Origin: Schmidtea polychroa
Lineage: Eukaryota
DNA length: 64,000 nucleotides
Reading direction: 5' to 3'
Assembly (NCBI GenBank): GCA_044892525.1
Contig: CM097885.1
Span: forward strand, 20,772,001 to 20,836,000
Shown here: positions 8,164 through 62,870 of the stretch, piece after piece
Position numbering within the stretch: the first letter of the stretch is position 1
Layout of the letters: each line of letters begins with the position of its first letter
Translations under genes and position numbers: made by a program
The notes under the pieces: generated by a model
What the model saw: the letters and a program-made list of their open reading frames with translations, nothing else
Databases searched by the model: none
What the model was told of the DNA's origin: nothing

Positions 8164-8665
8164 AGTAGAGGGATAGCGGCCCACTAAACCAGCGGCCCTC
8201 TGGGACAAAGACATACCCCTACCCCCCCCCCCCCGCCATTTAAAAATTTTTTTTCAAGGTAAAATTTTAAACAAAGACATATGACTCATCAAGGTCATTG
8301 AAACAAAGGCTATGACTCATTCAAGGTCATATGACTCATCCCATGACTCATTCAAGGTCATATGGCTCATCCGATGGCTCATTCAAGTTCATATGACTCA
8401 TCCAATGACTCATTCAAGGTCACATGACTCATCCGATGATTCATTCAAGGTCATTCTCAAGGTCATATGAGTCATGCGATGAGTCCTGCTAAATTTTTTA
8501 AAATTTAAATTCTCAGAGTTCCCGCCAATGGTTTTTATTATTTAATAGCTCATTCGAAAGGTATTTGAATGGTGAGTATTTGAGCCCATCGAAGGTCTAT
8601 GGAGGTTCAATAACCTTCAAAGTGTTCAATGGTATTGGTTACACTCAACATCTCACAAGGGTATT

Positions 8666-8756
<91 letters not shown>

Positions 8757-9250
8757 GTATTAATATATATACTCCGAGTCTATCCGACAAAATATTTTGT
8801 CCCCCTATGGGTAATGCTCACAATGGTACTGTTCACGCTCAACAACTCGCAAATCTACAAATCAACAAAACATACATCTATTTAAATAATAAAATAATGT
8901 AAAATTAACAAAGGTAAACTAAATATTGATGTACTACTATTCGCAGCATTATTGTTTGAAATTGGTAACGTTGAATTGATTTTCAGATATTCTATTGATC
9001 CTTTGATTGTTTGAATTTCGCTTAATAATAATTCAATCTTTTTAACAAATAATCATGCTTCTTATCAATAATTTTCATATTCTTTTTATTTTTAATAATA
9101 GAGTTATCGAAAACTTCAATATGATCAATCAATTTAATTTTTATATTTTTTATATTTTTATATACAAATGATAGTTCATAGCTGTTTTCTAAATTCTCCA
9201 ATCTTTGAGATATTCTTTTTCCTGGGTGCTTTGACCATTTTGGTTTGTCG
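8164..9250 (+). repeat. Left terminal inverted repeat of Polinton 1
   Basis: Reverse complement of ~23229-24395, including the mirrored ORFs 8565-8885 / 23589-23966 and the DKPKWSKHPGKRISQ segment. Confidence 0.92.
8281..8475. promoter_or_regulatory. ~31-bp tandem array of TGACTCA (AP-1) and TCAAGGTCA (NR5A/ERR-type) motifs in the left TIR
   Basis: Unit approx. TATGACTCATCCNATGACTCATTCAAGGTCA; about 8 TGA(C/G)TCA and 6 TCAAGGTCA. Confidence 0.7.
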
Positions 9251-9348
9251 TCAAACAAAGGTATACTCTGAGTTAATCCGACAAGATATTTTGTCCCCTT
9301 ATGGTTATTGCTCACAATAGTATTGGTTACACTCAACATCTCATAATG

Positions 9349-9433
<85 letters not shown>

Positions 9434-9442
9434 TATTACTTA

Positions 9443-9495
<53 letters not shown>

Positions 9496-9599
9496 ATCAT
9501 TATTATTATCATTATTATTATTTAAAAATGTATAAAATTGAAACTATCACAAGTTTTCAAAATACCAATAAAAATGAAAATGACCATATTAAAAGTAGT

Positions 9600-9990
9600 T
9601 ATCATTACTAATAATAAAAATGTTTAAACTTGAAAATTATCACATGTTTTCAATATAACAATAAAAATGCAAATATTAAAAGATGTTATTATTACGATTA
9701 TTAAAAATGATTAAACTTGAAAACTATTACAAGTTTTATATACACCAATAAAAATGAACACATGAAGTCTAGTTTTTTTTTTTTTTTTTTTTTAAAAAGA
9801 TATATTTTTAATAATATTCATCATTATCATTATCAGCTAATAATATATCATCAATATCAACATCTATATCGATACTATCATCGAAATCTGGGTTGAAATC
9901 TCCACGAAGCGGTCGAACATCATCCAATATTTGATGCTTATCATAGAAATCTTGGCTGAAATCTCCACATAGCTGGTTACAATCAACATA
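9600..9990 (-). repeat. Diverged tandem duplicate of the pPolB acidic 3' end and its downstream region
   Basis: QILDDVRPLRGDFNPDFDDSIDIDVDIDDILLADNDNDEYY* vs pPolB QILEEVGPLCGGFSPDFDDSIDIDVDIDDIILTDDDDDDYY*; downstream non-coding DNA is also repeated. Confidence 0.85.
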
Positions 9991-10011
9991 TCGCAAGTTT
10001 ATTTTTATTAC

Positions 10012-10072
<61 letters not shown>

Positions 10073-10296
10073 ATTATTATTATTATTATTATCATTATTA
10101 TTATTTTTATTAAAAAATGTTTAAACTTGAAAACTATCACATGTTTTCAAAATAATAATAAAAATACACATATTAAAAGATGTTATTATTACGATTATTA
10201 AAAATGATTAAATTTGAAAACTATCCGAAGTTTTTAATACATCAATAAAAAATAAAAATGAACACATTAAAAGTCTAGTTTTTAAAGAAGATATAT

Positions 10297-13151
10297 TTAA
10301 TAATAGTCGTCATCATCATCATCAGTTAATATTATATCGTCTATATCAACATCTATATCGATACTATCATCGAAATCTGGGCTGAAACCTCCACAAAGCG
10401 GTCCAACTTCCTCTAATATTTGATCACTTTCATCGAAATCTGGACTGAAACCTACAGAGAGCGGTCCAACTTCATCCAATACTTGATCATTATCTACAGC
10501 ATCAACCCCAAAATAATGCCTAAATGCGATACTATTATTTTTCCCCACCCATAATCGCTTGTCATCGTTATTTGTCAATGCGATTTTACTATTTTTGATG
10601 GTATATAGCTGGTGGTTCCGCGTCCCTATCCTAGTTTGCGGCACTGCAAATTCTACGTTGTTATTGTAGCAGTCTAAATATGACTGGTGCCCAATCTCTG
10701 TCCCCATTAATTTCACCCCTTTAGCCCTCATAGTATCTTTGACACCTAATAAACTATAGCACTTAGGTCTTAAGAAAACCCATTCCTTATACCCGAGACC
10801 TCTGCTTTCATCTTTAAATTTTCCTATCACAGAATCAAGGTTTCTCGAGTATAAGGGGTGTGCGGGATCATAATTAGAGGTATCTAGAAGATTATCTCTT
10901 ATCATTGCCGGCAAAAGAGTGTCTAGCTTACAGTGCTTAACCTCAAGAAAAAACGAATCAGTATCGCCGGCAACGATATTTATATCACATAAGAATTTGG
11001 ATCTATATTTTGCCAATTCATTATATTGCAGTTGATACATGCGTAGTGTAGACAGGTCTAGCACTGATTGGCCTATGTAGCTAGGCCTGTATAAACATAT
11101 AATATCTTTATTAAGATGAACCGCAATCAGATCATCCGCTATTTTAATTGATTTTTTGAAAGTTTGTTTGGAGGCGTATACAATCATCTTTGCTGATGAA
11201 TTGCATAGCCTCAAATTCATACGTTTTTTCAAATTCTCTACTGATTTACCATAGAGACTATTATTGAATAATTTATATAGATCTCTATACAGTTCACATG
11301 TTGATTTTGAACGTAAATTAGTATTTCGATCTATATATGTTTTGAAAATTGTTGATTGTTTAAATTTAATTGCTCTATGTACATGCTCAACTTCCTCACC
11401 TAATTTTATATACAGCTTGAGAAGCCGCCAATGAACATGGTTCTTCTTAGGCCAATGCGTGAGCATAAGCTTCTCAACTTTTGAATTAGGTGGACACATT
11501 TTTTCCGGAGCAAGCGGAAAATCATTCAAATATTCATGCACACGATTAGGGATATTGATGTCTTCTTCCATAGTATAACCATATGGAAGGTTTTCAATAT
11601 CTGCATTCACGCATTCACTCAACACATCATTCAGATTTTCATACACCCAAACAAAGTCACCATACGGAAGATTTTGGCTAAGAGCCCAACCATATAAATT
11701 ATTTATATCTATATACAAAAGTTCTGTATCTTCAGAACTTGCTACATAATGTTTGTTAACAAATGTTAACCCACCCCGTATTCCACCTTCGTAGAAATTA
11801 TACATTTCCATATCCTGTAGAACTTCTATAGGTTCCTGTAATGTCATGAGCGCTGACGCCCATGACATACCTGGAATTCCATAGAAGTTTAAAGGTTCAA
11901 GGCCGTTATAAGCAATTGCTTTGGCACGGAATTGCTGAAAATAATCTGCCAAGAGGAATACGTCCAATTTAAGGTACGTTAACATATAGTCTAACATTGT
12001 TTCGCAATTTTGCTGAACCCAGATTTCTTGGGCGATAGCATTTTCTTCATTAGATACAGAACTCCAAATCGGAGGTAATTCATGAGTAGATTCAAGAATT
12101 TCGAGTGATGTTGCAAAGTCGTAAGGAAATATGCCCTTTGCTCTCACAATACTACCATCAAAAACAGAAGAAGTTAAAGGTAAATCTGAAAGAGTTTTAA
12201 CTGCCTTTGCTAACGATGAGTTAACAAATTGCATACTGTCGATAAAACGAACAGTCAATTTGTTAATATTTACAATCAAGGATATAAATTTTTCAGTGGT
12301 GGTTGGAACGATATTTAATTTCCAAGATGGAAAATCATTCAAACCATACTTTAAAATGTGATGTAAGTCATACCCCTTCAAATTATGAAAGACAATGGGT
12401 AACTGTTTGTTTATTCTCCTAGAAACATTGCAATTTCTACAGGCAGCACCAAGATACTTACCTGTGAAATGATCATGGTCCTTAACCTTATCTTTTATAA
12501 AATGTTTACAGAGATAACAAGTCCTACAGTTGTTGAACTCCAGTTCCTCATTGAAAGACAGAGTATTAATGAATTTTCTACCATGAATTTCATAATACGG
12601 GAGGACAATTGTGACAGCAATTTCCTCCACCTTCTTTAAAATTTCAAAAACACATTCCAAGCCTATAAAATTAAAATATGATGTTGTGTTAGTGTAATTG
12701 TTAATTAATAATAGACCTGCTGTTATTGGTTTGTGCATTTGGTGATGATTTATATTCCCAGGTAAAATAGCCTCAAAGTCCGCGTATATTACGAACGGTG
12801 GGGTAATCATCTTTGAATAATCTTTAAACGTTAAATTTTTATTTTTAGGGAGCGTGTAAAGGGTGGTTCCTATTTGATTTTTAGCGCACAATGCAACATG
12901 TACCTTAAAGGTTTTGAATTCTTTAATTTCTCCATCTTTTTCAATTTGAATAAGAACTGTAAACTGGACTTTTACAGATCCCATCTTTTCAATTTCCACA
13001 TTAATTTTATTTATAATTTTATCCGTAAAGGAGATTTGAATTAAGTTTTTATGTTCTAAATCAAATCGAATATTTTTACGGGAACCCTTTAAATCTATCT
13101 CTATTTCAGGTTCATCATTTATATCTATTTGAATATTTTCTATATTGTTTT
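10297..13151 (-). CDS. Protein-primed family B DNA polymerase (pPolB) with EndoVII-like insert; 5' exon not located, N-terminal region short
   Basis: YADFEA, CYLC..DHDHFTGKYLGAACRNCN, FHNLKGYDLH, YIDINNLYG, KLFNNSLYGK, GDTDS; the poly-I start of the ORF track is an (ATT)n tract ending in a likely acceptor AG at 13152-13153. Confidence 0.93.
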
Positions 13152-13152
13152 C

Positions 13153-13208
<56 letters not shown>

Positions 13209-13345
13209 TAATAATTGCCCCAAATAAATGTAGCTTGCAGTGAGCATGCATCTACATCTCTTCTCATATAATAATAATAATAATTATTCCAATAAAAGTA
13301 GTTTGCAGTGAGCATGCATCTACATCTCTTCTCAAATAAAAATAC

Positions 13346-14031
<686 letters not shown>

Positions 14032-14217
14032 TATGACAGATTTGTTACATGTATTAATTTGTTAAAATATTATTATCAATTTATGATTTATAAAGATTTA
14101 ATTACTTATCAAATAAAGTTTTTGAATAATTAATCATTTAAATTAATACATTTAACGAAGTGTTTTAGTAAAAATTTGTTAAATATTATAAAAAATAAAT
14201 TAAAAAAATAAAAAATG

Positions 14218-14851
14218 CTAACATTTCCATTCCATATCGGAATCAGAATCATCTTCTAATTCATCCCGCATAGGGGCATCTCCAATATCAGTGGGGGCAT
14301 CAGAGTCATCAACTGCATTTGCAATAAATGTGGAGGCATCAGATTCATTGACGACATTTCCAATATCAGTGGGGGCATCAGAATCATCAACTGCATTTGC
14401 AATAAATGTGGATGCATCAGATTCATTGACGACATTTCCAATATCTGTGGGGGCATCATCGACGATATTATTAACTACTCCTTCATTTGTAACTACATTT
14501 GTTTCATTATCTGAAGGTTCTTCTTAAATATATTTAATAAATAAAATAAAACTTACCACTGTCATCACTAATAATGATTTCTTCATCATCGGTTATAATA
14601 ATAAGTTCATTATCTTCCATAAGATTAATTTCATCTAAATATTAATAATTTAATAAATAAATAAATAATTTAATTTACCATCATCATCGTCACTAATAAT
14701 AATTGGGGCATCGTCCATATTATTTTCTGCTTCGGTAACTTCGTACCATAAATTAGCTAAATGTGAATAAAATAATAATAAATAAAAGAAAAAAAAATTT
14801 ACCGTTTTCTCCAGCCAAAATTGCTCTTAAAATATTATTTTGATTATTCAT
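14218..14851 (-). CDS. Spliced 169-aa acidic protein with several SIM-like motifs; exons 14851-14803, 14756-14679, 14634-14557, 14522-14218
   Basis: Three phase-1 GT-AG introns (46, 44, 34 bp) give an open frame MNNQNNILRAILAGENANLWYEV...PIIISDDDDDEINLMEDNELIIITDDEEIIISDDSEE...DSDMEWKC*. Confidence 0.85.
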
Positions 14852-15279
14852 TTTGAAATTGTTGATAATTGTTTTGTTTGCAAATTTGTAAATAAATATT
14901 TTTTAAAAGTGACAAATTTGGAATTTGTGAATGTTTATAAAGAAAATGAAAATTCCCTGTCCCAGCCAATCAGAATTTAGACACACACATATATAAACTA
15001 AATATTTTACTCTCTTGACCAATCACATTGCGTCTACACATGCCTTCTTATTTTTCATGTGACTGTCTTTATTAGTCACGACTTTGTTAAGATGCACTGT
15101 GCATGCTCCAGGCATGTGATGTCTTTATGACAAAAATAATAATAATATTTTTCAAAATAATAATAAATTTAAATAAAAATACTAATTTTTAATCAAATAA
15201 TAATATTAATAATATTATTATTAATAATAATAATAACAATAATAACAATATTAATAATAATACTAATAATAATAATAAT

Positions 15280-15372
<93 letters not shown>

Positions 15373-15410
15373 TTGAAATAAAAGATAAATAAAGCAAATA
15401 ATTGCAAGAA

Positions 15411-15458
<48 letters not shown>

Positions 15459-15613
15459 TATAATAATAAGAACAACAAAGGATACAATATACATTTATTA
15501 AACATCAAATTTTTTATACAACAAATTTTTTATACAACAATTTTTTATACAACAATTTTTTATACAATAATAATAATAATAATAAGAACAGCAAAGGATA
15601 CAATATACATTTA

Positions 15614-15998
15614 TTAACCATCAAATATTTTATACAACAACCAAGCTAAACAATGTTGACCACATGTTTGGGTCAATCGATTTTGAAACATAGTTTTATT
15701 ATACATAATAGGTTTCCCCATTGTTTGCAGTTTTGATATCAATAAAGCCGGGTAATAAAAACCCATAGGATCGAATACGAATATATTACTAGGTTTCACA
15801 CATATAGCTATCCAATGTTCTCCACCAAGATGAGACGATTGAGTATTGATGATTATGGCTTGATTATTTCTCAAATATGGAATTTTATCGAGAGGAAAAA
15901 CTCCTACAAATTCATTTCCCAATATCTGTTTTCCAATTCGATTAACCTGAACAGAACTACTTTAATAAATTAAATAGTATCAAAAAAACTTACTCCAT
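15614..15998 (-). CDS. Adenain-like cysteine protease (116 aa; 5-nt first exon, intron 15960-15993)
   Basis: ATGGA|gtaagt...attaaag|TAGT gives MDSSVQVNRIGKQILGNEFVGVFPLD; catalytic motifs GEHW, FDPMG, QTCGQHC. Confidence 0.92.
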
Positions 15999-16025
15999 GA
16001 CAACTTTCTATATTTCTGTACACAT

Positions 16026-17234
16026 TTATACCAACACAGTTCTATTTGCAGTAATTTGAACTTCATTTTCAAATACTCCATAGATTATTACATGGACTGG
16101 TTCAGAAATTGCTTTTGCAAACTTTATATCCAGTCGTAAATTTCCATTTTGGGGTAATTGACTCTGATTTAAATCAAAATTGGGGGCTAAAACAAATGTA
16201 AAAAATGGGTATTTGGTTTTAAATTCTTCTAGAGTTATTCCACAATTCGAATTTTCATCTAAATAACCCAGATTTCTAACAATACTCTGCATATATGTCG
16301 CACAGTAATTGTCATTCTCGAAATCTTGAATATATGTTTCTCTATAATCAGTATTTTTCGACAAAGTCAATGATGTACCACCAAAGTTTTTGAAAATTGA
16401 GTTGGACGCAGTATATGATCCATTATATTGTGTTTCACTTTGAAATGTTATCAGAATAAAATTAGGCAGTCTTCTATCACCAAATATTTGTTCTTTATAG
16501 AATGATGAAGCACCTTTAGCAATAGCGAATTGTACAATTTCCTTTGTTTTTAATGGATAAATTGCATGTTTTGAATTAAGACCTAATTGATGACCAGCTA
16601 ATACTGAGGGGTCTACTCGAACTCTTCTCACCAATAATTTTGCATCAACTAATTGACATATTGGTGCACCAATTTCACTAGTAAGAGATAATGCAGAATC
16701 AGACCTTTTCAGTCTAATGTGTAGTAAATATTTCGGTTGATCCATAAAATCGAGTTGTAATGATGAGCACATGGTGAAAACCTTTGAGCCTTTAACCCAC
16801 TTTTTTCTTTCATCATCTGCTGCTGCATAACCCATAGGAGTAAGGCATGTATTTTTAGTATCGGAATTGTAATTTAAAATAGTTTCTATTAATGCCTTGT
16901 GAATGAATGTATTATTTCCACCCTCAATCTTGATATTATTAAATCCCAACACTGCATCTTTAAACAGAGTATGAAACATGAAATTGTTCGGTATTACATC
17001 GGCATTGGCATCCAAAACTTTTCTATCTTTATCTACAATCTTGATCTGAACAGTCAATAAAGTATCGTTCAAATCTAAATATTCAGTTTGCGAACCATTA
17101 ATATAAAACTCTATATCATTTCTACTATCGGTAATTGAATTTATAGGAAAAGCTTCCTCAAACGCCCCAAATTCAATTACCGCTTGAGGCGATGGTCTAT
17201 CAAGTATACATAATTCAGATTTACCACAAATCAT
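16026..17234 (-). CDS. Polinton major capsid protein (double jelly-roll)
   Basis: CGKSELCIL...IEFYINGSQTEYLDLNDTLL...GNLRLDIKFAKA motifs typical of Polinton MCP. Confidence 0.88.
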   Translation of the reverse strand: MICGKSELCILDRPSPQAVIEFGAFEEAFPINSITDSRNDIEFYINGSQTEYLDLNDTLLTVQIKIVDKDRKVLDANADVIPNNFMFHTLFKDAVLGFNNIKIEGGNNTFIHKALIETILNYNSDTKNTCLTPMGYAAADDERKKWVKGSKVFTMCSSLQLDFMDQPKYLLHIRLKRSDSALSLTSEIGAPICQLVDAKLLVRRVRVDPSVLAGHQLGLNSKHAIYPLKTKEIVQFAIAKGASSFYKEQIFGDRRLPNFILITFQSETQYNGSYTASNSIFKNFGGTSLTLSKNTDYRETYIQDFENDNYCATYMQSIVRNLGYLDENSNCGITLEEFKTKYPFFTFVLAPNFDLNQSQLPQNGNLRLDIKFAKAISEPVHVIIYGVFENEVQITANRTVLV

Positions 17235-17599
17235 TTTGCAAATATAGTTCCATGTCCTTTCATTCGTTTGTTTATACGTGATATTCCATGTCTTTTACGT
17301 TTTGGAACAGGAGCTGGAGCTGGAGATTTTTCTTTTTGAAACATACCTGCAACCCCGGGTAAAACTTTCCCTAATTCAGCTAAAGCATTTGTTTTTGGAG
17401 ATGGTAATATTTTCTGTTCATTCATAATAACATCTTTTGCAGTTTTCATACCAAAACTACCAATACGTTTAAGAATAGGCAATGCAAATCTACCAATTGT
17501 TCTCAACCATCCCGATCCGTACTGTTTACCAATAAAATATGGTAATTCACCGCCAGATTGGCTACCACTATACATACTAATAATATCAGAATTCGGCAT
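17231..17599 (-). CDS. Small virion-core / membrane-active precursor (QxGxG plus amphipathic helix, basic tail)
   Basis: QSGGELPYFIGKQYGSGWLRTIGRFALPILKRIG; lies between the minor and major capsid genes. Confidence 0.7.
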   Translation of the reverse strand: MPNSDIISMYSGSQSGGELPYFIGKQYGSGWLRTIGRFALPILKRIGSFGMKTAKDVIMNEQKILPSPKTNALAELGKVLPGVAGMFQKEKSPAPAPVPKRKRHGISRINKRMKGHGTIFAK

Positions 17600-18659
17600 C
17601 TACTTTACGAAAATGTAATGTCAAATGGGTTTTTGAACCTTTTAGAAAGTTTATAAGTTTTCCACTATCATCACGAATATTTATTTCTATATTGTTTATA
17701 CATGAACTTGCTATTGGTAAATACATGGGATTATCGATATTTATATTGACAACTTCATCATGTTCATATTTTCCAATCCATACCGATTTCAAAAGAGGAA
17801 CACTGGAATCACCAACAATTATGGGTTCGATAATGTTAGTATATATGAAAATTTGTTGATGATGTTCTAGTATTCTTGGTTTGCGTATACCAGTCGATTT
17901 TTCTCGATATTTTTGCTTATATAATCCAAGTGAATTTGCAAAATTTTTATCAAATGTAACTTCGCAAATATCATCATTCAAAATGAAGGTAAACATCAAA
18001 TCTTTCACAATTTCCAAATTTTTAAATATGTGTGAACAATTGAACTTTAAATATTTAAGTAATATATCAAGTTTATCAAAATATAATTCATCAGCAAAGG
18101 TGAATGATTCTTCAACTTCATCATTATACGACACAGATATTTTGATTTCTTCTTTCACTATACTGTTTGCTTCAAATAGATTAAAACGTAATAAATACTC
18201 GGTCTCCGTAATAATATTTTTCAACTTATTGCAACCCATTCGTTTGGCATCTTCAATAGTTTCGAATGTTATTGTAAATGGTTTAAAATCACAACTGATA
18301 TTTAATCCATCCTTGTAAAACATATAGCAATGCGAATCTAAAATTTGATTCGGAATATGATATGTTTTATCATAATTACTGATAACAAAGATACCGCTAC
18401 ATGTTTTCACAATATTCCTTTTGAAATCAATCTTACATTGACTATAAAATGGGAATGTATTGTACACGAATGTAAAATCTTGCAGTGCAACTTCCCAGTC
18501 ACCATTTAAAGAAATCGGATTCTGGAGATTGACCATGAATTTACTGGCTTGATTGTCTGGATGAATTAATGGGCAACTATTGCTCGGCAAAATAGTATAA
18601 AAATTCACTTTACTAGATCTTTTGCTGATATCCATGACGGGTTTTGATAACCATGCCAT
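17586..18659 (-). CDS. Polinton minor capsid protein (penton); exact start uncertain
   Basis: FYTILPSNS...PDNQASKF..L..PISLNGDWEVAL; FIYTNIIEP..VGD..VPLL; IEINIRDDSGKLINF...LTLHFRK. Confidence 0.9.
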   Translation of the reverse strand: MAWLSKPVMDISKRSSKVNFYTILPSNSCPLIHPDNQASKFMVNLQNPISLNGDWEVALQDFTFVYNTFPFYSQCKIDFKRNIVKTCSGIFVISNYDKTYHIPNQILDSHCYMFYKDGLNISCDFKPFTITFETIEDAKRMGCNKLKNIITETEYLLRFNLFEANSIVKEEIKISVSYNDEVEESFTFADELYFDKLDILLKYLKFNCSHIFKNLEIVKDLMFTFILNDDICEVTFDKNFANSLGLYKQKYREKSTGIRKPRILEHHQQIFIYTNIIEPIIVGDSSVPLLKSVWIGKYEHDEVVNINIDNPMYLPIASSCINNIEINIRDDSGKLINFLKGSKTHLTLHFRKVDAEF

Positions 18660-19243
18660 TTGACATAGTATTGTTTATCCTTGCCGACCTTTTTAGTTTT
18701 CAATATTTTTTGAATTCTAAATACTTTTGGGGGAGGAATGACTTGTAATTCCTGCTCATAAAATTTCCCTTGTACAATATTATTACCATTATCTTTGATG
18801 ACATACATTACAGGATTCTGTTTAGTATTTATTTTTGAAATTACAAAGACTTCATCACTCCAATTTGTATCAAAATTTTTAATAAATGGTGATGCACTAA
18901 TTTTACTAATTCTAACATGGTCACCAACTTTATATTTAGGTTTTGCAATTTTTACAGAATTTTTAGAAGTCAATGATGTTTTTGATGTAATATCAACCGG
19001 TCTCAATCCATTCAGTCCTCGATGTGATGAATGATTATAACTTGTTATTATTTTCGGTAATACATTTACCCATTTTTTATTAACTTGATGCACGAACAAT
19101 TTCTTTAATCTATCTCTCAATGTTCGATTAAATCTTTCGACATGGGCAGCTTTGTATTGAGAATGTACCGAGTAGTGATTTATTTTCAGTTTATCGAGAA
19201 TTTGCTTAACTTTGCTATTGTAGAATTCTTTATCTAAAATAAT

Positions 19244-19341
<98 letters not shown>

Positions 19342-19597
19342 CTAAATCTGTTTGCAAGTTATTAGGATGTCCATCTTTAAATAAAATATTAATTACCTTG
19401 GACATTTCTTCTGCAGATTTTGCCTTGACTGGTATTGCTCGTGCAAACCTGCTGTATACATTAATACATGTTAAAATATATTTATTCCCATTGTTAATTT
19501 TCGAATAAGGTATCATCTCCATCAAATCCATTTGCCATAAATCGTCAATACCAAATGTTTTATATTTAATGTCGGGCAATGAAGGATTAGCACCCAT
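18605..19597 (-). CDS. Retroviral-type DDE integrase with C-terminal chromodomain; microsatellite-filled intron 19234-19341
   Basis: WQMDL, LQTD, HVERFNRTL, YYVKWHGY..SWI; the poly-I run is bounded by GT...AG (108 bp). Confidence 0.93.
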
Positions 19598-19600
19598 TGT

Positions 19601-20134
19601 TTATGATTGATTTCCTACAACTCCACCTAATAATGATAATACCAGAGGTATCAATGCACCAATAAATCCACCTTGTTGTTTATATATAATTTTCCTCATT
19701 TGCTTACGATTTTTATTATTTACTAATGATAACAAAGGTTTCCTATGTTTGCTCAATAAATGCTTTTTTGATTTACTGATTTTAATTTTGCCTTTGACTA
19801 CTTTAAGTATAATATTGAGTAAATCATCGACAACAAAATTTGGGAATGATTGCAATATATTCATTCTTTTCATACTCGGGGCCTTTAACAATGCATTAAA
19901 AAATGGAAAACTGCGATGATTTTTAACTACTTTTTTACCGGTTTTACGGGTTTTACGGGTTTTACGTTTAGGTTTAGGATTTTTCGAAATAAGATTCATT
20001 GCAGAGAAATTTTCAGTTACAAGTTTTTTAGATGGTGTATAACTAGTTGTTGGTGGAACTTTTGGAATTTTAATACTCTTTCTAATACTTTTTCTTAATT
20101 TCCTAATATTTGTCACCCTTGCTTTTAGAAACAT
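19601..20134 (-). CDS. Basic core-protein precursor with C-terminal GG^F hydrophobic tail
   Basis: K/R-rich (KRKTRKTRKTGKK); ends QQGGFIGALIPLVLSLLGG, resembling adenain-cleaved core precursors. Confidence 0.7.
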   Translation of the reverse strand: MFLKARVTNIRKLRKSIRKSIKIPKVPPTTSYTPSKKLVTENFSAMNLISKNPKPKRKTRKTRKTGKKVVKNHRSFPFFNALLKAPSMKRMNILQSFPNFVVDDLLNIILKVVKGKIKISKSKKHLLSKHRKPLLSLVNNKNRKQMRKIIYKQQGGFIGALIPLVLSLLGGVVGNQS

Positions 20135-20152
20135 TATTATTCATAGAGGTTT

Positions 20153-20779
20153 TCAACTTTGTTTATAAACCATGGCACCTTTTGGGTTGAAAATATCTGT
20201 TTTTACTCGTAAATCATCGGGACATTGTTGTGTGAAATCAAGAAATATATATCCATGAGGTATTTTTGTAGCGTCTTGAAATGCACTGATAAGAAAATTA
20301 CGATTGTTAGGGTATGCTTGACGTGCAAGAAAATCAATCACTGTTGCATCTCTAGGATTCTTGAAAATAACTAAATATTGTACATTTAAATTACGTGTTC
20401 GATGTGCCCCACCTTGATGAAATAGATTTTGTGTTATGAAAATAACTGTTACACCGACATGTCTGCTGATCTTTGTAAATAAATTATTAAAATCTTTTTC
20501 TTTATTAGCTTCTTGATACAAATCATCGATAATAATGACATCGCCTTTCTTTAATCGGCTGGACCAGTTTTTATCGAATCCCTTTACTATTTTCATGTTT
20601 TTTAATTTACAGAAACTTGATTGAGTTAATCCATGTTCTTCATCAGCACCCCTATGCCAATAAATCCTGTTGAATTTTGATTTGAATAAATTTGATTTTA
20701 GTAATTTACAAACAAATAATGTTTTTCCACTACCACTCGGACCAACGATTTGGTATACTGCATCATTTCTTAATTCCAT
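20153..20779 (-). CDS. A32/FtsK-like genome packaging ATPase
   Basis: Walker A GPSGSGKT, Walker B IIIDD, SRH..VTVIFITQN; likely start is MELRND at 20779. Confidence 0.93.
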   Translation of the reverse strand: MELRNDAVYQIVGPSGSGKTLFVCKLLKSNLFKSKFNRIYWHRGADEEHGLTQSSFCKLKNMKIVKGFDKNWSSRLKKGDVIIIDDLYQEANKEKDFNNLFTKISRHVGVTVIFITQNLFHQGGAHRTRNLNVQYLVIFKNPRDATVIDFLARQAYPNNRNFLISAFQDATKIPHGYIFLDFTQQCPDDLRVKTDIFNPKGAMVYKQS

Positions 20780-20882
20780 TTCAAAACTTTTATAAATATA
20801 TGTGTATTTGTTTATATTCGATGATTTAATGAACTCGTGCTCAATTTGTATATAAAGACTAATTTTCATAAATGATTTAATA

Positions 20883-21320
20883 ATGTTAGCAAATATAAAT
20901 TATCGAGGAAATTTTGATGTATCGAATATGAGGTTCCCACCAGAGAAACCCCAGCAAATTATCGATAGAAGCGGGAAATATCCGATAATATTTTTCAAGA
21001 CTGGTAAATGCAGAATCATGGGATGTAAGAAACCTTTGGATATTAATAAATTACAATATCGAATAAATAATATTACAATCCAATCAATTACCGTTACTAT
21101 GGATATGGGACATAGTATCAATCTATATAACATGTCGAAAAAATGTGATTGTATGTTTGAACCGGAATTGTTTCCGGCACTAAGACTATTAAAATATAAC
21201 CCTATATGTGTCAACGTGTTTGCTAGTGGAAAGGTTGTCATGTTGGGGTTGAGAAATTTGGAGTATAGAGAATTTGTTGATAATGTTCGAAATGAGATAA
21301 TTTCATTGGTCGATTTCTAA
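20883..21320 (+). CDS. TATA-binding protein (TBP)-like protein, 145 aa
   Basis: IFFKTGKCRIMGCK / ITIQSITVTMDMGHSINL / FEPELFPAL / VNVFASGKVVMLG align with TBP LIFASGKMVVTGAK / FKIQNIVGSCDVKFPIRL / YEPELFPGL / LLIFVSGKIVLTG. Confidence 0.9.
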   Translation: MLANINYRGNFDVSNMRFPPEKPQQIIDRSGKYPIIFFKTGKCRIMGCKKPLDINKLQYRINNITIQSITVTMDMGHSINLYNMSKKCDCMFEPELFPALRLLKYNPICVNVFASGKVVMLGLRNLEYREFVDNVRNEIISLVDF

Positions 21321-21379
21321 TTGGTTATTGATTGATTTAAACAAACGGTTTTTTGTTTAGGATTCATTTATTCAACAAA

Positions 21380-21789
21380 ATGTACAAAATACCAAGCGCA
21401 GCAAATCTAATGAAAGATATTGACGACTATGGTAAATTTAAAATTTTATTTTCACATTTTTTATATTTATTATTTTAGAAAAATATTTAGAAGTAATGCT
21501 GAATAGGATAAAATATTATTATCCTCAAATTGCAGAAATAATCAAGGATAGAGAACCAGAAATCATTCCAGATCTCATATTCTATTCCACTCAAATTAGA
21601 ATCATGGAGGTATTCCATCAATTCCTATGGGATATCAAGATTAATAGAACCATGAAACAAATGGAGCCGGAGTACCAATGTATGTTCGGATGTTCATGTT
21701 GTGCCGATCGATATCGGCGATATGTCGAATGGGAGTTAGTGAAAACTCTGAGAAGGTTTCACTACTCCCGGATTGTTGATAAATATTAA
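21380..21789 (+). CDS. Spliced 120-aa hypothetical protein with Cys cluster (intron 21432-21478)
   Basis: ATG at 21380; G|gtaaat...ttttag|AA joins in frame to ORF 21496-21789; QCMFGCSCCAD. Confidence 0.75.
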
Positions 21790-22090
21790 TAAATGTATTT
21801 TTGTTTCTATTGCGTTTTTATATTTGAAATAGTAATAATAATAGTAATAATATAAATAATAATAGTAATAATAAAATAAATAGTAATAATAATAATAGAA
21901 ATAATATAAATAGTAATAATAATAATAATATAAATAATAATAGTAATAATAATATAAATAGTAATAATAATAATAGAAATAATAGAAATAGTAATAATAA
22001 TAATAATAATAATAGAAATAATAATAGAAATAGTAATAATAAAACATTAATAATAATATGTCACATTAATAGAACATAAATGCAGCATTA

Positions 22091-22168
22091 ATGCAAATGA
22101 CATGCAAATTTAAACAAAGACATGCTATAATCTGATTGGTTGATAGGCATGAGTCAAAGGTATAAAAA
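22091..22168 (+). promoter_or_regulatory. Compact Pol II promoter: 2x octamer, AACAAAG, inverted CCAAT, AP-1, TATA
   Basis: ATGCAAAT (22091, 22102), AACAAAG, GATTGG (22134), TGAGTCA (22150), TATAAAA (22161), ATG at 22202. Confidence 0.6.
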
Positions 22169-22201
22169 CCATGTAACATTTCAATTTAATCATTATTCAC
22201 T

Positions 22202-22636
22202 ATGACCAAGAAAATTTCATGCACCGAAAAACCTAAAGAAATGGTACAACCAGTTCAAATGTTCCACAACTACAAAATGTATTTTTTGAAAGACGAAATC
22301 ATTATGAAATTGGTTGCACCAGTCAAGCTAATTCCAACTAAATTTCAATTCTTATCCGGCACGCTTTCAATGATTGATGTCAAAACTATTGATGATGTTT
22401 TTAAACGGTTAGATTCGAATCTATCGTGTAATCAACATGCATGGTTCAACAATAGATATGCAAGATTTTATGATGCTTTTGATGAAATCAGTTTCAAAGA
22501 AAATGAAAATTGGTATATAACAATTGCAATCCAGGGATATAAAGTTGATAATAATGATGTATATTCTCCTATTTGGAAAATTGTGTCTGCTAGACTTTCA
22601 CAAATATTTCACAAATATCCATGGTTGAAACTTTGA
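22202..22636 (+). CDS. Hypothetical 144-aa protein (possibly OB-fold ssDNA-binding)
   Basis: Clean ORF with upstream TATA; beta-rich aromatic C-terminal half WYITIAIQGYKV...YSPIWKIVSARL. Confidence 0.65.
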   Translation: MTKKISCTEKPKEMVQPVQMFHNYKMYFLKDEIIMKLVAPVKLIPTKFQFLSGTLSMIDVKTIDDVFKRLDSNLSCNQHAWFNNRYARFYDAFDEISFKENENWYITIAIQGYKVDNNDVYSPIWKIVSARLSQIFHKYPWLKL

Positions 22637-22674
22637 CTTGATTATCTAGAAAATAAATATTAATAAAATATAGA

Positions 22675-22986
22675 TTATAAAAGTATTACTTCTTGAGACC
22701 ACTGATAATAATGTTCCGAGTGCCATAAACCTTTTTCGATTATGATCTTCATATAAGCGAACCCTACTAGTATTCGGGTCCACTTCATCTCATCGTCACA
22801 TAGGCAGTTAAAAATCCTATGAAAATAGAATTTTTTCGTTTCCAAGCACTCGGAATTGATCATATCCTGATAATCGATATGATTTCCTTCGATTATCTTT
22901 TCGGTCCGGTCCACTAGGAAACTCAGGCTTTCCAAAATGTTCTTGTTTATAATTTCGCTTAAAAGATTTTCCATAAAATGAGACAT
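22675..22986 (-). CDS. Bcl-2-like protein (BH1-like motif), 103 aa
   Basis: FHRIFNCLCDDEMKWTRILVGFAY resembles BH1 F..V...F.DG..NWGRIVA.F.F. Confidence 0.6.
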   Translation of the reverse strand: MSHFMENLLSEIINKNILESLSFLVDRTEKIIEGNHIDYQDMINSECLETKKFYFHRIFNCLCDDEMKWTRILVGFAYMKIIIEKGLWHSEHYYQWSQEVILL

Positions 22987-23091
22987 TTCTACAATAATTT
23001 AAAATATGATGTTTTATTTATACTAATACCGTATGATTTTGATTGGTTGATAGACTATAAATGTAAAAGAAAGGCTTTGATTTGATACACA

Positions 23092-23502
23092 ATGAAAACT
23101 ATATTCATATTGCTAATTGTTATAACGAGTGTGTGCTCACACAATGCAACAATAACAGTGGAGTCTTTTAATAAATCGATATGTGTTTGTCCGAATACAG
23201 CCAAGTTGATGGATATTTTATATATTCTCGATAAACCAAAATGGTCAAAGCATCCAGGAAAAAGAATATCTCAAAGATTGGAGAATTTAGAAAACAGTTA
23301 TGAACTATCATTTGAATATATACAAAATATAAAAATTACATTGATTGATCATATTAAAGTTTTCAATAACTCTATTGTTGAAAATAAAAAGAATATGAAA
23401 ATTATTGATAAGAAGCATGATTATTTGTTAAAAAAGATTGAATTATTATTAAGAGAAATTCAAACAATCAAAGGATCAATAGAATATCTGAAAATCAATT
23501 GA
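23092..23502 (+). CDS. Secreted coiled-coil protein, 136 aa; 3' part lies inside the right TIR
   Basis: Signal-peptide-like MKTIFILLIVITSVCS; heptad-like C-terminus; upstream GATTGG and TATAAA. Confidence 0.7.
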   Translation: MKTIFILLIVITSVCSHNATITVESFNKSICVCPNTAKLMDILYILDKPKWSKHPGKRISQRLENLENSYELSFEYIQNIKITLIDHIKVFNNSIVENKKNMKIIDKKHDYLLKKIELLLREIQTIKGSIEYLKIN

Positions 23503-23717
23503 ACGTTACTAATTTCAAACAATAATGCTGCGAATAATAGTTCATCAATATTTAGTTTACCTTTGTTAATTTTACATTATTTTATTGTTTAAATAAATGT
23601 ATGTTTGTTGATTTGTTGATTTGCGAGTTGTTGAGCGTGAGCAGTACCCTTGTGAGCATTACCCATAGAGGGAACAAAATATTTTGTCGGATAGACTCGG
23701 AGTATATAGATTATTAC

Positions 23718-23810
<93 letters not shown>

Positions 23811-24395
23811 TAATAATAATAATAATAAAAATAATAATATTAATAATAATAATAATAGTAATAATAATACCCTTGTGAGATGTTGAATGTAACCAATACC
23901 ATTGAACACTTTGAAGGTTATTGAACCTCCATAGACCTTCGATGGGCTCAAATACTCACCATTCAAATACCTTTCGAATGAGCTATTAAATAATAAAAAC
24001 CATTGGCGGGAACTCTGAGAATTTAAATTTTAAAAAATTTAGCATGACTCATCGCATGACTCATATGACCTTGAGAATGACCTTGAATGAGTCATCGGAT
24101 GAGGCATGTGACCTTGAATGAGTCACCGGATGAGTCATATGACCTTTAATGAGTCATCGGGCGAGTTATATGACCTTGAATGAGTCATTGGATGAGGCAT
24201 ATGCCTTGAAGAGTCATGGCATGAGTCACATGACCTTTAATGAGTCATCGGATTAGTCGTGGTCTTTGTTTCAATGACCTTGATGAGTTCTATATCTTTG
24301 TTTAAATTTTGACCTTGAAAAAAAAATTTAAAATGGAGGGGGGTATGTCTTTGTCCCAGAGGGCCGCTGGTTTAGTGGGCCGCTATCCCTCTACT
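23229..24395 (-). repeat. Right terminal inverted repeat of Polinton 1
   Basis: Mirror of 8164-9250, with a longer TGAGTCA/TGACCTTGA array at ~24044-24290. Confidence 0.92.
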
Positions 24396-31396: not shown

Positions 31397-33715
31397 GATA
31401 AGAAATGAGAGAAAAAAAGGCTTGTTAAAGTTCGTATTGAAGTGAGAATGAGCGATTTTAGGTCTAAATATTTTATTTAATAAACACTGCGAAAGTGGCT
31501 TACGTAATTATTTATTTGAATTATATTTGTATAAATGAGTGAATGAATGAACAAAACAAATTACTGGATTCGAAGTATTACATATACGAATAAGTTGAAG
31601 ATAACTTTATTTTTCATATTTAAATATATTCATATAGACTACGGTGGATCATCACGCCTCAGGGGTGGGACATGTTAGCAATTATCAATTATTCCACATA
31701 CATTCTTTTTAATATAATATGCTTATTCACGACTAAATATAACAACGTACATACAGCAATTTCACCGACCGTTATTTTTGCATAATGTCAATACTGATTA
31801 TCGAAGTTTGACAGCTACTTTAAAGGGGCCTGGTGGAGCATATGAATTTTGAAAGTACTACGGTGGAGCATATAACTTTTGAAATACTACGATGACTCAT
31901 GGTATAAAGAAGGTCGGGAAACACTGATATAAACAGGCGCGTATTCTCTTACACCTATGTAAGTTTACTATAGGCGTGTTAATTTTCAAATTGCCTCCGC
32001 TCCCTCAACTATTAAAATGTTAATATTAAATAAAAAATATATACTAAATAAAATGTGTGAGTTTTTGTCATTAACAAAATTGACAATTAATAAAACTCTA
32101 TTTAGGCTAATATAAAAAGTTAATAACAAAAAACAAATGAATAATTATACACAATTACAGTTCACAAAATTTCTATAATAACAATTTTTTCTTTTATCAT
32201 AAATATTTATTATTAGGATAACATCGTTTTGTGAATCACTAAATAACTCCATAAACTTTATTTAAGCAATTATGCACTAAATTTTAATGTTTTCTAATTG
32301 TTTGTTATTTAAACAGTTTCCATCTTCTATTTAAAATATTTTTATATAATAAATATTTTTAAAATTTTAAAATTCCAAAAATTTACAATTAAAATCTTTT
32401 AGATTCTTCCAGCTTCTTCATATTTATTATTTCCTGTTTAAATTAAAATTTACTGTCAAAAGATCCCATATAATGTCAATTTGTGTATTTTTTATTATAG
32501 AAATTGTTTATAATTATCCATTTGCTTTTTGTCATTAACTTTTTCTATTAGCCTAAACAAAGTTTTATTAATTGTCAAATTTGTTAGTAAAAGTGTGGCA
32601 CTGTCTCACAATGTCCTTAACTGATGATTGTGAGACGGATGGATTCATTTTCCTGACTGACAACAATGTCCGATTTACTCCAAAATGATGATCTGTGTGG
32701 AAATTCCGTATTAGATCCATGTTTTCATCAACCTTACTTGCACTTAAAGCAGTCTCTACATTAGGCTCAAAACCGTTGTATCTGTTTTCAGTTGTAACAA
32801 CATCGCATTCGGCACCTTCATCATTTCGTCTGCCTTGTTTAACTCCGTCGGCACTAACTCCACCGTGACCTTCAGACTGTATTCATTTATAATCGACTTG
32901 AACATCTCAAGGCGACGTCGGACCAATAATTCGGATTTGGTCTTGAATCATCATTGAGTACCGCATAAAAACAGCTATACAATTAAGTCAAACCACTTGG
33001 AACTTCCAATCAATGAGTATTTCTATTTCTTTCAATGTAGAATCTAGGTCAACGGGATTTATGTGAGCTGCATGGTCTGACTTGCGCAACCAAGTTAATA
33101 ATCACGCTTTCAGGTCAGTTTTTCATATTTTCTTACACATTTTTATGGCTGCAATGCAAAAAACTCACTTTAATTTACAAAAAAATCACAAATTTAAATT
33201 TAAATTTGTTTCATTTTTAATGAGCTATAAATCACATACTATAAATCCACCGTAGTACTTTCAAAATTCATATGCTCCACCAGGCCCCTTTAAAGTAGCT
33301 GTCAAACTTCGATAATCAGTATTGACATTATGCAAAAATAACGGTCGGTGAAATTGCTGTATGTACGTTGTTATATTTAGTCGTGAATAAGCATATTATA
33401 TTAAAAAGAATGTATGTGGAATAATTGATAATTGCTGACATGTCCCACCCCTGAAGCGTGATGATCCACCGTGATTTATATGAATATATTTAAATATGAA
33501 AAATAAAGTTATCTTCAACTTATTTGTATATGTAATACTTCGAATCCAGTAATTTGTTTTGTTCATTCATTCACTCATTTATACAAATATTATTCAATTA
33601 AATAATTACGTAAGCCATTTTCGCAGTGTTTATTAAATAAAATATTTAGACTTAAAATCGCTCATTCTCACTTCAATACGAACTTTAACAAGCCTTTTTT
33701 CTCTCATTTCTTATC
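31397..33715. repeat. ~470-bp inverted duplication (31397-31867 and 33246-33715) around a ~1.4-kb spacer
   Basis: GATAAGAAATGAGAG...GTACTACGGTGGA is mirrored by TCCACCGTAGTAC...CTCTCATTTCTTATC with few mismatches. Confidence 0.9.
32070..32590. mobile_element. Decayed MITE-like element with ~80-bp imperfect inverted repeats
   Basis: TAACAAAATTGACAATTAATAAAACT..TAGGCTAATA mirrored by TATTAGCCTA..AGTTTTATTAATTGTCAAATTTGTTA. Confidence 0.55.
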
Positions 33716-39235: not shown

Positions 39236-39469
39236 CACTATTATTATATAATAAGAATTTTTTTTAAATTTCACAACTGATTTCTTTTCAATTGACATTG
39301 TAATTATTAAAAAGCTTGACTATGAATCAGTAAATATATCGATGTTTTTTGATATTCACGAATTTTCGGCAATGTCTTTTTATATTATTATTATTAGTAT
39401 TATTATTTTTATTATATATTTTTTTTATTATATATTATATTTTTATATTTTTATTATTATATATTTTAT

Positions 39470-40046
39470 ATATATATATTTCTCCAACCAGCCATTACTA
39501 GCTTTAAACACATTGTTGTTTAGACTAATAGCTATCTTCTTAGCTGATGCTGTCAACAATTCTCCGTTAATAGGAAAGCCTCGCAGCACTTTGTTTTCAT
39601 ACCACTCTAGAACATACTCATTGATAAGTTTAAACTGCTGATTTGTTAGTCGTTTTAGTTTTTTATTTGCATTATTGTTCCAAAGCTCCTTTATTTCTTC
39701 TTTGTTAACAATGATATTGTGGACTTGCGTTTTACTACAAGAAAATCGTCTTGCAATAAGTCTCTGTCTTTCTCCTCGCTCAGAAGATTTAATAACATCC
39801 ATCTTCTCGCTCAATGTAAGCTTCTTTCTCGTTTTTTTTACTCCATTTTAATTTTAAAAAAATATTTAAAAATAAATATTTAAACTAAAAATATTTTTTA
39901 CGAAAAGTGGTCTTAACGAAAGGGGTGGTCCTATTATGGATGATTATTTGTCCCAGTAAACTACTGTGTAAATTTGGTTCCGAAGAAATAGAGGTCTTAA
40001 CTAGAGGTGGTCTCTTTAGTGAGGTGGTCTTAAGTAGAGGTTTTAC

Positions 40047-56154: not shown

Positions 56155-57198
56155 GAAGTTGTCTTGATAGAGAATTAGACTTATTTACAAAATAACTTCA
56201 GATTTCGAAATATGTTAATATGGTCATATCTTATCATTTGAAATTATATAATACTTCAAATAATTATTATAATAAATAATAATTACAATCATTTACTAAG
56301 AAATATATGATACATAATTAATATAATTTTAAAGTAATTCTAAAAATATATTCTCAATCTTTTAATGAGACGATATTGAAATATTTTCTGATCCGTTGGA
56401 TAAAATGATCATTTCATGATCATATTCCAATAAAATATAAATTTATTTCAGAAATATAATCGACTTTCTTTCGAGTTTTAGAAGAAAGGAAATAAATAAT
56501 GAAATTCAGTAATTTTATTGACACAAGGCCATTTGAAAATCATTTACAAACAGTTTTTTCATTTTTAAATTCCAGTAAAATTAAATTTAACATAAATATT
56601 AAAATTTTATTATTATTCATAATACCTACAAAATTATTATTATTATTATTATTAGGTAGTTAGGAGCCTACGGCAGCAATGACCCCCGGGGGGGGGTCTA
56701 CTGCCGTAATATTTTTCTGCTTTTTGATTACGCAATTGCTGCCGTACGCTATACATATTTTTTTCAATACAAAAATGAGTAGTGAGGAATCTATGCACCC
56801 CAGCACCCCCACCCTAAAAAAAACAGCGCTATTGACCCATATTTTCTACATTTATATGCTTTTTTACCCCATATTCTTCACTTTTTTTAACTTTTAAACT
56901 TTGTCCCCTATTGCCATTAACCCTTAATTTCTTCCCTTAAAAGTAAAAAAGTTCGGAATAGATGTATTTATAGATTAGTAATTCCGAGAAAAGGTAACGG
57001 GGTGCATAGATTCCTCACTACTTGGTCTTAAGGATTTAATGTTATAAGGATTTAATGTTATAAGAATTTAATGTTATAAGAATATCAGATTACCTAATTC
57101 ATAATGATCTAGGTCGCCTGATCACTTTTAGATTTAAAAAAAATAAAAATTAATATCAAAACCAAAACATCGTATCCAACCAAAAAATTCTTTTAAAA

Positions 57199-60100
57199 AT
57201 GGAAGCTATTTTCAATTGTGAAATTTGTGAAAAAATTTTAAAAATAAAACTGCTTTAACATCTCATAAAAAATCAAAAGACCATTTAATAAAAGCTAACA
57301 CACTAGATGACACTAATTCCAAAATCTGTTCTAAATGTAAGGATAGATATTTATTTTCAGGTTATAAGAAGCATTTTAAAAATTGTATTGGAGTTCCTAA
57401 AAACAGAGAAATATTCGAATGTTCAGCATGTGGAAAAAAGATGAAGATAAAATCTTTTTACTTAAGACACATAGAAGATTGTGGTCTTGAAGCAAAAGAT
57501 TCTGATTCAAACTCAATGACTGAAAAAGCTGAAAAACTAGAGTTTAATTGGGACAACTTCAATCACACCGATGTAATTGTAGAAGTAAAACGAGGACCCA
57601 GATCAATCATGCAATATATAAGAGAAAATAAAAAAAAAATAATATCATCAATGGATGATGCTATAAAAAAATTTGGTAGATCAAGATTTAATGTTATAAA
57701 AGTTAAATTTACAGGAAATGCAAAATACTGGAGAGGAGATGATTCAATCGCAATGCCTCTAGATGTAAAAATTGAAACCTCATATAAATATTTATTTTCT
57801 ACAAAAGCAGGAAATAAACTTGTTAATGATATAGCTAAAGAATTGGAAGAAAAACAAGAACAGGTGGAACAAGAACTAGGAGAATCTAATTTAAGATTCC
57901 ACTCTTTTCAAAATATAGAGATTGAATACTGGAGAGGCGCACCACCAAATCCTAAATCTTTTATTCACACACCATTCACCTCCAACCATGTTATAAATGT
58001 ACAGAATAAAGATAATAAATGTTTTCAATGGTCAATACTTGCACACTTACATCCTCAAGCAACTAACCCACAGAGAGTTCAAAAATATGAAGAATATGAA
58101 TCTGAATTAATTTATCCAAAAGATTTTTCCCACCCAATGAAAATTGAAGATGTTCCAGCATTTGAAAAATTAAATAATCTTAAAATTAATATTTATCAAT
58201 TCATTCCAACCAAAATTACAAAAACTAGAAAAAATAAAAATTATAAACACATTATTCCTATTTACATTTCTAACATGGAAATCTCAGATGAAAAGAGAGA
58301 AGTAGATCTTTTAATATTAGAAGAAGGTAAACCAGATGAAGACTTTGATGGAGAAGAATATGGTGAAGAGGTTCAAAGCGTTCACCCGAGGAGAGAAGCA
58401 GAAGAAGGCATTTCATTAGAACCAGAAGCAGAAAGCACTGCGTCCGGAGGCACTATGTTAGATAAAAAACTTCATTATATCTTAATAAAGAATTTTCAAA
58501 GTTTTATGAAAGGAAACACACTCATTCGTGGAGGCATATGTTGTAAAAGATGTTTATATCATTCAAGTTCAAAACTTGCTGCTATTAAACATGAGAGACT
58601 CTGTTGTAAGAATCAACCTGCTTTAATAAAAATGCCACACAAGAAAAATGCTAATATGAGGTTTAAAAACTATTCCAATCTATTAGAAGCATTGGGAGTG
58701 GTTTATTGTGATTTTGAAGCTATAAATGTAAAACTAAGACGAACAAAAACTAATACTGTAAAACTAACAAAACAATTACCCTCTGCTTATAAAATGTTTT
58801 TTAAAAGTAATTATCCAGAACTTGTAGAATCTAGAGAATATTCATTTAGAGGAACTTCTGACAAAGAGACTCTAGATCATTTTGTTAAAACTTTAAATAA
58901 TCTAGAACATGAATTATATATAATATTAAAATCCAACTTTCCTATGAATTTTTCAGAAGAACAAGAGGAAGAATATAAAAATGCAACACACTGCTGGATG
59001 TGTAAACAAGAGTTTGATATTCAGGAGGAGGAGGATGAGGAGCCAAAGGTTGCAGACCATGATCATTTTAAAAGAGAAAATAATTACAGAGGAGCAGCCC
59101 ATAAAAAATGTAATCTCAATTGTAAAAAACCAACACACATACCATTTATATTTCACAATCTTTTTGGCTATGATATTCACCTATTCATTAAGCATCTGGC
59201 CGCAAATGCTAAAAACTCTTTCAAGGTTATTGGACTTACAAAAGAAAAATATAAAAGCATTCAATATGGATGCTTTAAGTTTTTGGACTCGTTAAATTTC
59301 TTAGGGATGTCTTTGGATGGGATTGCTAAAACTATGAACCCTGAGGATTTTAAATATACAAAAGAACATGTGTTATTAAAAAACAATATTCCATTAGAGG
59401 AATATAATACCTGTCTAGCAAAAGGAATCTATCCATATGATTATATAGACTCCTTTGAAAAATATAATGAATTACTCCCACCCCAAGAAGATTTCTTTTC
59501 TGTTTTAACACAATCAGGGATTTCTGATCAGGAATATTCCCGTGCAGTTAAAATGTGGAATCTATTCAACTGTAGAAACCTTGGAGAATATACTGACATG
59601 TATCTTTCCTTGGATGTTTATATCTTAGCTGATTGCTTCGAGACATTTTCAAAAGCTTTTGAATTAAAACCTTATAATTATATAACCGCTCCCTCTCTAG
59701 CTTGGGATATATTATTATATACCATATGGACTGATGAAGATGTAGCAGTAAGAAATAAAACTATTGAATTATTAGTTGAGCTTGATATGTTTAATGTATA
59801 TAAACATAATATTAGAGGAGGTATTTCTTCAGTACAAGGGAATAGAGAAATAAATGCTAATAATTTTACAACTCTTTATCCTAAATTTTTCAAAGATCCT
59901 GATGCTCTATATGTAGAAATAACAAACCCAGAAGATCGTAAGGAAATAATGGAAGGTCTTTCTAATCCTTCTGAAATAATGTATATAGATGCAACAGCTT
60001 TATATGCGGGAGTAATGACTCAATACCTTCCAATTGGCAAGTTCACCTGGAAAGAACCCACTGAGGAATTAATACAAGAAATTCTAAAAACACCAAAAGA

Positions 60101-61592: not shown

Positions 61593-61616
61593 GAATTAGA
61601 ATTTTAACACTATAAA

Positions 61617-62171: not shown

Positions 62172-62265
62172 AACCAACGATATTTAATTTTTTAATAATA
62201 AAATGTCGACAATTAATTTAAGCAACTATAGCAACCTGATCTACTTTTTTAAAAATACACCCATT

Positions 62266-62862: not shown

Positions 62863-62870
62863 TTTAATAA

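Follow-up and report, generated by a model that had tools for sequence, protein, structure and literature searches.

The minus strand of positions 14218–14851 carries four predicted exons that join into one acidic reading frame of 169 codons, in the 64,000-nt window of Schmidtea polychroa DNA (the whole stretch analyzed here). On balance, the sequence makes it probable that these exons are the 5′ leader of the pPolB gene of a Maverick/Polinton element, severed from the polymerase by a later fold-back insertion. The most likely general account is that they belong to a variable N-terminal module of pPolB, either attached to the polymerase or split off from it.

Read from 14851 to 14218, the exons give 169 codons and a TAG in a single frame; the coordinates were checked in the sequence, and splicing is predicted. 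A search of sequencing runs listed no RNA run with this sequence; four runs contained at least half of its words. Exon 1 (14803–14851, minus strand, 49 nt) supplies the ATG, 16 codons, and 1 nt, and is followed by predicted intron 1 (14757–14802, 46 nt, GTAAA...TAG, 11% G + C). Exon 2 (14679–14756, 78 nt), the 3′ end of which encodes PIII and a Ser/Asp run matching only the looser SUMO-interacting motif (SIM) patterns, is separated by predicted intron 2 (14635–14678, 44 nt, 4.5% G + C) from exon 3 (14557–14634, 78 nt), which encodes LIII with TDDEE, a strict SIM core, and III with SDDS. After predicted intron 3 (14523–14556, 34 nt, GTAAG...AAG, 9% G + C), exon 4 (14218–14522, 305 nt) encodes an acidic segment with 28 Asp or Glu in 100 residues, contains a 39/78-nt internal tandem repeat, and ends in W-K-C-stop. 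All three introns are in phase 1 and of the form GTAA...AG, with 4 to 11% G + C versus 26 to 39% in the exons. An earlier note on this DNA had described a 169-amino acid ORF joined across three phase-1 GT–AG introns of 34 to 46 bp, and its coordinates proved exact; the motifs that it had picked out, PIIISDDDD, LIIITDDEE, and EIIISDDSEE, are all present, the third crossing junction 3.

As a control for chance, any AT-rich GT–AG intron of 30 to 50 nt was allowed. Under this rule, the real region gave 169 codons with three introns, whereas none of 300 dinucleotide shuffles reached that length (maximum 86, mean 37); none of 338 tiles of 750 nt from the window, no tile of which spanned the whole locus, gave at least 100 codons with at least two introns. 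Three codons differ within the duplicated unit of the 78-nt repeat of exon 4, and all three differences are synonymous. The acidic frame is thus a true predicted intron-split coding sequence, far above chance. Exons 2 and 3 are equal in length and end alike at their 3′ ends, which suggests that they arose by duplication; ungapped, they are identical at only 31 of 72 positions. No RING, CxxC, LxCxE, or CR1 motif was found in any exon, a Pfam search with exon 4 returned no match, and the whole frame contains a single Cys, in keeping with the earlier observation that no enzymatic or RING domain is visible. Lys and Arg number 3 in 166 exon-internal residues, and there is no basic nuclear signal.

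The element that houses the exons (8164–24395) is a 16.2-kb Maverick/Polinton with terminal inverted repeats (TIRs) of ∼1.1 kb (8164–9250 and 23229–24395, 86% identity), AGTAG ends, and a 6-nt flanking duplication that matches at five of six positions. It encodes the Maverick gene set of an rve + chromo integrase, a Pox_A32-type ATPase, an adenain-type protease (Peptidase_C5), and pPolB; the last was identified through relatives that carry PF03175, the polymerase of the window itself matching only Endonuclease_7 in Pfam. The protease (15611–15998, minus strand, Peptidase_C5 E = 1.5e-6) has a predicted 34-nt phase-2 intron (15960–15993) after codon 2. Among 22 related metagenomic loci inspected at the protease start, 13 have the same intron (L002, L004, L005, L007, L009, L010, L012, L013, L014, L017, L019, L020, and L022); it is missing from L006, L036, and more distant loci. 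A conserved ORF of 402 amino acids has 151 relatives, with conserved gene order, and no match in Pfam or the PDB; its size and its gene position and order make it a putative capsid gene. Searches of viral and prokaryotic collections returned no relative for either this capsid-sized ORF or the polymerase.

Several further features of the window were recorded. Within the element, a TBP-like gene (20883–21320, plus strand, Pfam TBP E = 1.3e-15) has counterparts in L001, L002, L020, L024, and L031, and an ORF at 22646–22986 (minus strand) matches Bcl-2 weakly (E = 0.019). The stop of the latter lies inside a 44-nt GT–AG intron-like stretch, the same type of read-in stop as we propose below for exon 4. 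In-frame lesions affect pPolB (10297–13151, ∼230 residues missing), the capsid-sized ORF (16026–17234, ∼5 missing), and the integrase (18605–19597, 36 added). The integrase contains a 108-nt in-frame (ATT)n tract (19234–19341, minus strand) bounded by a TTAG duplication that gives it a GT start and an AG end, so that the tract may be either an insertion or a new intron. Local duplications affect the 3′ ends of pPolB and of the protease (9455–10462 and 15450–15640), and their junctions carry (ATT)n tracts. Elsewhere, the window holds a second, different pPolB-bearing element at ∼56650–64000, which has zinc fingers at the N terminus, is interrupted by a frame break near 57230, and carries its C-terminal part in duplicate (61080–61541 and 61680–62141); an element with 470-nt inverted ends (31397–33715); a fragment of a CENP-B/Tc5 helix-turn-helix transposase (39443–39802); and a weak GIY-YIG ORF (2545–2886).

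The pPolB body of the Maverick (10297–13151, minus strand) is broken. With domains named after the terminal protein (TP)–vOTU–exonuclease–palm layout (PMC11071308), it has only ∼12 residues ahead of the terminal-protein-like domain, and the missing ∼230 residues comprise the remainder of this domain together with the OTU-like one. It aligns with its closest relatives at 55 to 62%. Behind its only in-frame ATG comes an (ATT)n tract, leaving no usable start, and the 150 nt ahead of the body contain no TATA word. The acidic exons lie 1.07 kb upstream on the same strand.

Relatives of this polymerase commonly carry additional sequence at the corresponding place. Among 120 pPolB relatives, the start of the terminal-protein-like domain could be placed in 20, one of which was dropped as a mis-hit; in the remaining 19, the domain is preceded by 6 to 204 residues (median 110), values that are lower bounds given the intron-blind gene calls. 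These N-terminal extensions are often of low complexity and mutually variable, and some are acidic and internally repeated (P0123, with 38% Asp/Glu, P0127, P0136, and P0142). In L002, the 5′ end of pPolB is split by AT-rich introns of 45, 53, and 49 nt, all three in phase 1; their removal leaves 1219 open codons, and one of the exons is acidic. BLAST of our exons against the 120 polymerases gave no significant N-terminal match. Exon 4 had no homolog among proteins of 55 to 175 amino acids and no usable Atlas match, and 18 phmmer matches to it were set aside as unrelated repeat proteins without similarity to pPolB. Gene orientation also differs: pPolB is opposite to the capsid gene in all six relatives that display both, and the two are codirectional in the window. 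Inversion of an L002-type block would yield exactly the order protease–leader–pPolB–TIR.

Upstream of exon 1 lies a predicted host-type promoter (14852–15030, minus strand) in which ATTGG, the inverted CCAAT box, stands at −172 and again at −119, with TATAAA at −88; the same arrangement of ATTGG and TATAAA lies ahead of three accessory ORFs in the right arm and of pPolB in L004. At the other end, the last codon and the stop of exon 4 overlap a phase-1 donor-like site, AAT/GTTAG, at 14222. Exon 4 contains 12 GTs, this being the only one in phase 1, and behind it the G + C content drops to 5%. As a donor it is weak: with T at −1, it matches U1 at five of nine positions versus six or seven for introns 1 to 3, and a GTTAG donor with T at −1 occurs in none of the 22 introns delineated in relatives, 11 of them from proteases, located with a pattern restricted to GTRA, and 11 chosen by eye. 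No AATAAA occurs within 200 nt after the TAG; it is present after four of nine other ORF ends checked.

Between exon 4 and the polymerase, an AT-rich stretch (14031–14217, minus strand, 13% G + C), either an intron remnant or a 3′ UTR, is followed by the fold-back insertion (13377–14030, 654 nt), which consists of 237-nt arms with 98% complementarity and (TAA)n on the outer side, around a 180-nt spacer. Next comes what is left, in degraded form, of the 5′ part of the pPolB body (13152–13376, minus strand), with a duplicated segment of ∼47 nt, (ATT)n tracts, and the word LFGA in the polymerase frame at 13227–13216. A phase-1 AG (13153–13152) stands just ahead of the body. Excluding the fold-back, the gap measures ∼410 nt, long for introns of this Maverick lineage, and none of its acceptors carries the exon 4 frame on into a recognizable motif. 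A pairing of W-K-C with a downstream Leu/Arg/His-like word as two zinc-finger halves was not supported, as 35 of 51 control tiles scored as high.

Several observations argue for a leader of pPolB, among them the extensions of relatives at the corresponding place and the gene order that inversion of an L002-type block would yield. The exons lie on the same strand directly upstream of a polymerase that has no start, N-terminal extension, or promoter of its own; their stop coincides with the sole phase-1 GT of exon 4, and an AG in the matching phase 1 stands ahead of the polymerase; and three phase-1 introns split the 5′ end of pPolB in L002, whereas the introns of the stand-alone genes found in relatives are of mixed phase. 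The case is weakened by the weak GTTAG donor, the lack of a recognizable continuing exon, the long gap, and the separate genes of L006 and L036 described below, as well as by the BLAST result: position, strand, intron phase, and the startless polymerase agree with a leader, and sequence homology was not found.

If the exons are a leader, a single transcript would be driven by the predicted promoter upstream of exon 1, and the host spliceosome would excise from it a string of short introns in phase 1, the apparent TAG being the opening bases of one more intron. The product would be a pPolB lengthened at its N terminus by an acidic, disordered segment. In this copy, the fold-back insertion and (TAA)n tracts would have separated the leader from the polymerase body, and that body has an internal deletion as well. 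The extension may act as a flexible docking or targeting tail, one Ile-rich acidic patch of which could bind SUMO weakly, and the adenain-type protease of the element may clip it ahead of the terminal-protein domain at a hydrophobic-x-G-(G/A/S) word. Such a word, picked post hoc, is present in the 45 residues leading up to the domain in 11 of 19 relatives versus 69 of 451 background windows, and LFGA in the polymerase frame of the window fits it. The adenain cleavage consensus is (M/I/L)XGG/X or (M/I/L)XGX/G (PMC4246237). Were the tail clipped in this way, fused and stand-alone forms would be functionally close.

The main rival is a stand-alone accessory gene, which, with all its versions taken together, we consider possible but less probable than a leader. 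Its most explicit version, to which we give a rather doubtful standing, is an early accessory gene with spliced exons, which probably separated from the N-terminal module of pPolB and encodes an acidic, disordered protein of short linear motifs, activator- or chaperone-like, with no proven SUMO binding. A clean frame from ATG to TAG, an ATTGG and TATAAA promoter as in other accessory ORFs, and the exclusively synonymous changes in the exon 4 repeat are what such a gene would present. Separate genes of this kind exist in relatives: L006 (∼3270–2085, minus strand) and L036 (∼2790–1520, minus strand) each carry beside the protease a stand-alone gene with four introns, in phases 2, 0, 0, and 1, and 340 and 363 codons, respectively, the first exons of which are homologous to a Cys/His zinc module at the N terminus of relatives' intronless pPolBs (tblastn E = 2.5e-9). 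These genes, however, lie 3′ of pPolB and have mixed intron phases. A stand-alone gene would also leave pPolB without promoter, start, and N terminus unless these were deleted, and it lacks AATAAA after its stop, a weak point given that only four of nine other ORF ends have one. The adintovirus "Oncoid" genes, described as typically upstream of PolB (PMC8502044), resemble the acidic frame in that position, small size, acidity, and short motifs; the frame differs in being intron split and in lacking LxCxE, CR1, and paired CxxC, and we found no homolog of it. The earlier note had read the frame as a free-standing protein of the mobile element. Its intron-split, acidic, nonenzymatic character stands, whereas its independence is doubtful, as position, intron phases, and the junction at the stop favor a leader of pPolB.

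Less probable again is the proposal made in that note, in which a free protein with three tandem SIMs binds poly-SUMO as a decoy and thereby counters SUMO-dependent silencing of the element; we regard it as distinctly unlikely. A SIM is described as a four-residue hXhh or hhXh core (h = Ile, Val, or Leu) with an acidic flank (PMC8616421), and a hydrophobic core followed by Ser/Thr and acidic residues, as in the acidic frame, matches that description. The same source cautions that matches to the consensus often turn out not to be true SIMs. Only one of the three motifs, LIII, has the strict core, equal to the shuffle expectation of 1.07. Under looser definitions, two of three fit a pattern that allows Pro (p about 0.1), and all three fit a three-residue III core with an acidic flank (p 0.02–0.04, the motifs not being independent). 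The earlier SIM claim thus holds for the presence of the motifs and their III-acidic form; by the strict core, it stays at chance level. The stretches of Ile and Asp consist of repeated ATT and GAT triplets, and the element abounds in (ATT)n; probable exon duplication would have multiplied these stretches. Nor does the frame contain the two or more strict cores with acidic flank of a tandem-SIM protein, the RING or RING-like domain of STUbLs (ubiquitin ligases that are SUMO-targeted), or a basic nuclear signal. In relatives' N-terminal extensions, SIM-like words number 13 versus 4.1 expected when counted per motif, mostly from two related proteins, and they are not enriched per protein (5 of 18 vs. 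3.2 expected, p 0.19). Four tandem V-I-E/D-I-P/Q-S (VIEI/VIDI) repeats in the same N-terminal region of P0136 (residues 128–158) and P0142 (residues 125–155) speak for the proposal, and they fit the SIM core better than the motifs of the window do. SUMO binding by at least one predicted motif is a reasonable lead, if still a doubtful one, and an anti-silencing role of the acidic frame is purely conjectural. A broader scheme is just as unlikely as the free decoy: the intron-assembled modular tail of this lineage, with predicted SUMO-binding arrays (III-acidic or four VIEI repeats) and either fused and protease-released or encoded by a separate gene, would dock the replication origin at SUMO-rich nuclear sites or titrate SUMO-dependent silencing.

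That the exons are a piece of a host gene captured by the element, or decayed DNA of low complexity that mimics a spliced gene, is very improbable: the element is degraded, with its polymerase deletion and (ATT)n insertions, and no homolog of the exons was found, but the shuffles yield no such frame, the repeat changes are synonymous, the promoter is of the element's type, and the same intron style is kept in the protease of 13 of the 22 related loci.

A leader of pPolB would have a parallel in the adenovirus E2B unit, in which the start of a replication gene is brought in by a spliced leader. For the proposed trimming of the tail, the likeness is to adenovirus pTP, a precursor cut by the adenain protease (PMC4246237). 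The leader here would differ in encoding ∼170 acidic residues in at least four exons, and its cleavage would be read from the motif alone. The polymerase is the same gene as the Maverick/Polinton pPolB (PMC11071308), relatives carrying PF03175 and the N-terminal domains; the region before the terminal-protein-like domain, however, is likely divided into short phase-1 exons here, and this copy is broken. To SIM-array proteins, such as RNF4-type STUbLs and KSHV K-Rta (PMC4276950, PMC8616421), the acidic frame is alike in its Ile-rich patches followed by Ser/Thr and acidic runs in a disordered chain; it differs in that one patch only fits the four-residue core, the SIMs are predicted, and a RING or RING-like domain is absent.

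Our literature search, which covered mostly papers outside subscription, turned up neither spliced pPolB leaders nor SIMs reported for Mavericks. Intact Mavericks of vertebrates are described as intronless (PMC8097293), and annotation based on ORFs therefore misses spliced Maverick genes. The lineage examined here has conserved tiny introns in the protease and, in some members, at the 5′ end of the polymerase. If it is true that the tail binds SUMO, for which present support is thin, it would provide a testable link between a self-synthesizing element and SUMO-dependent host silencing. An N-terminal module of pPolB that occurs both fused to the polymerase and as a separate spliced gene offers a handle on the origin of accessory genes in Mavericks.
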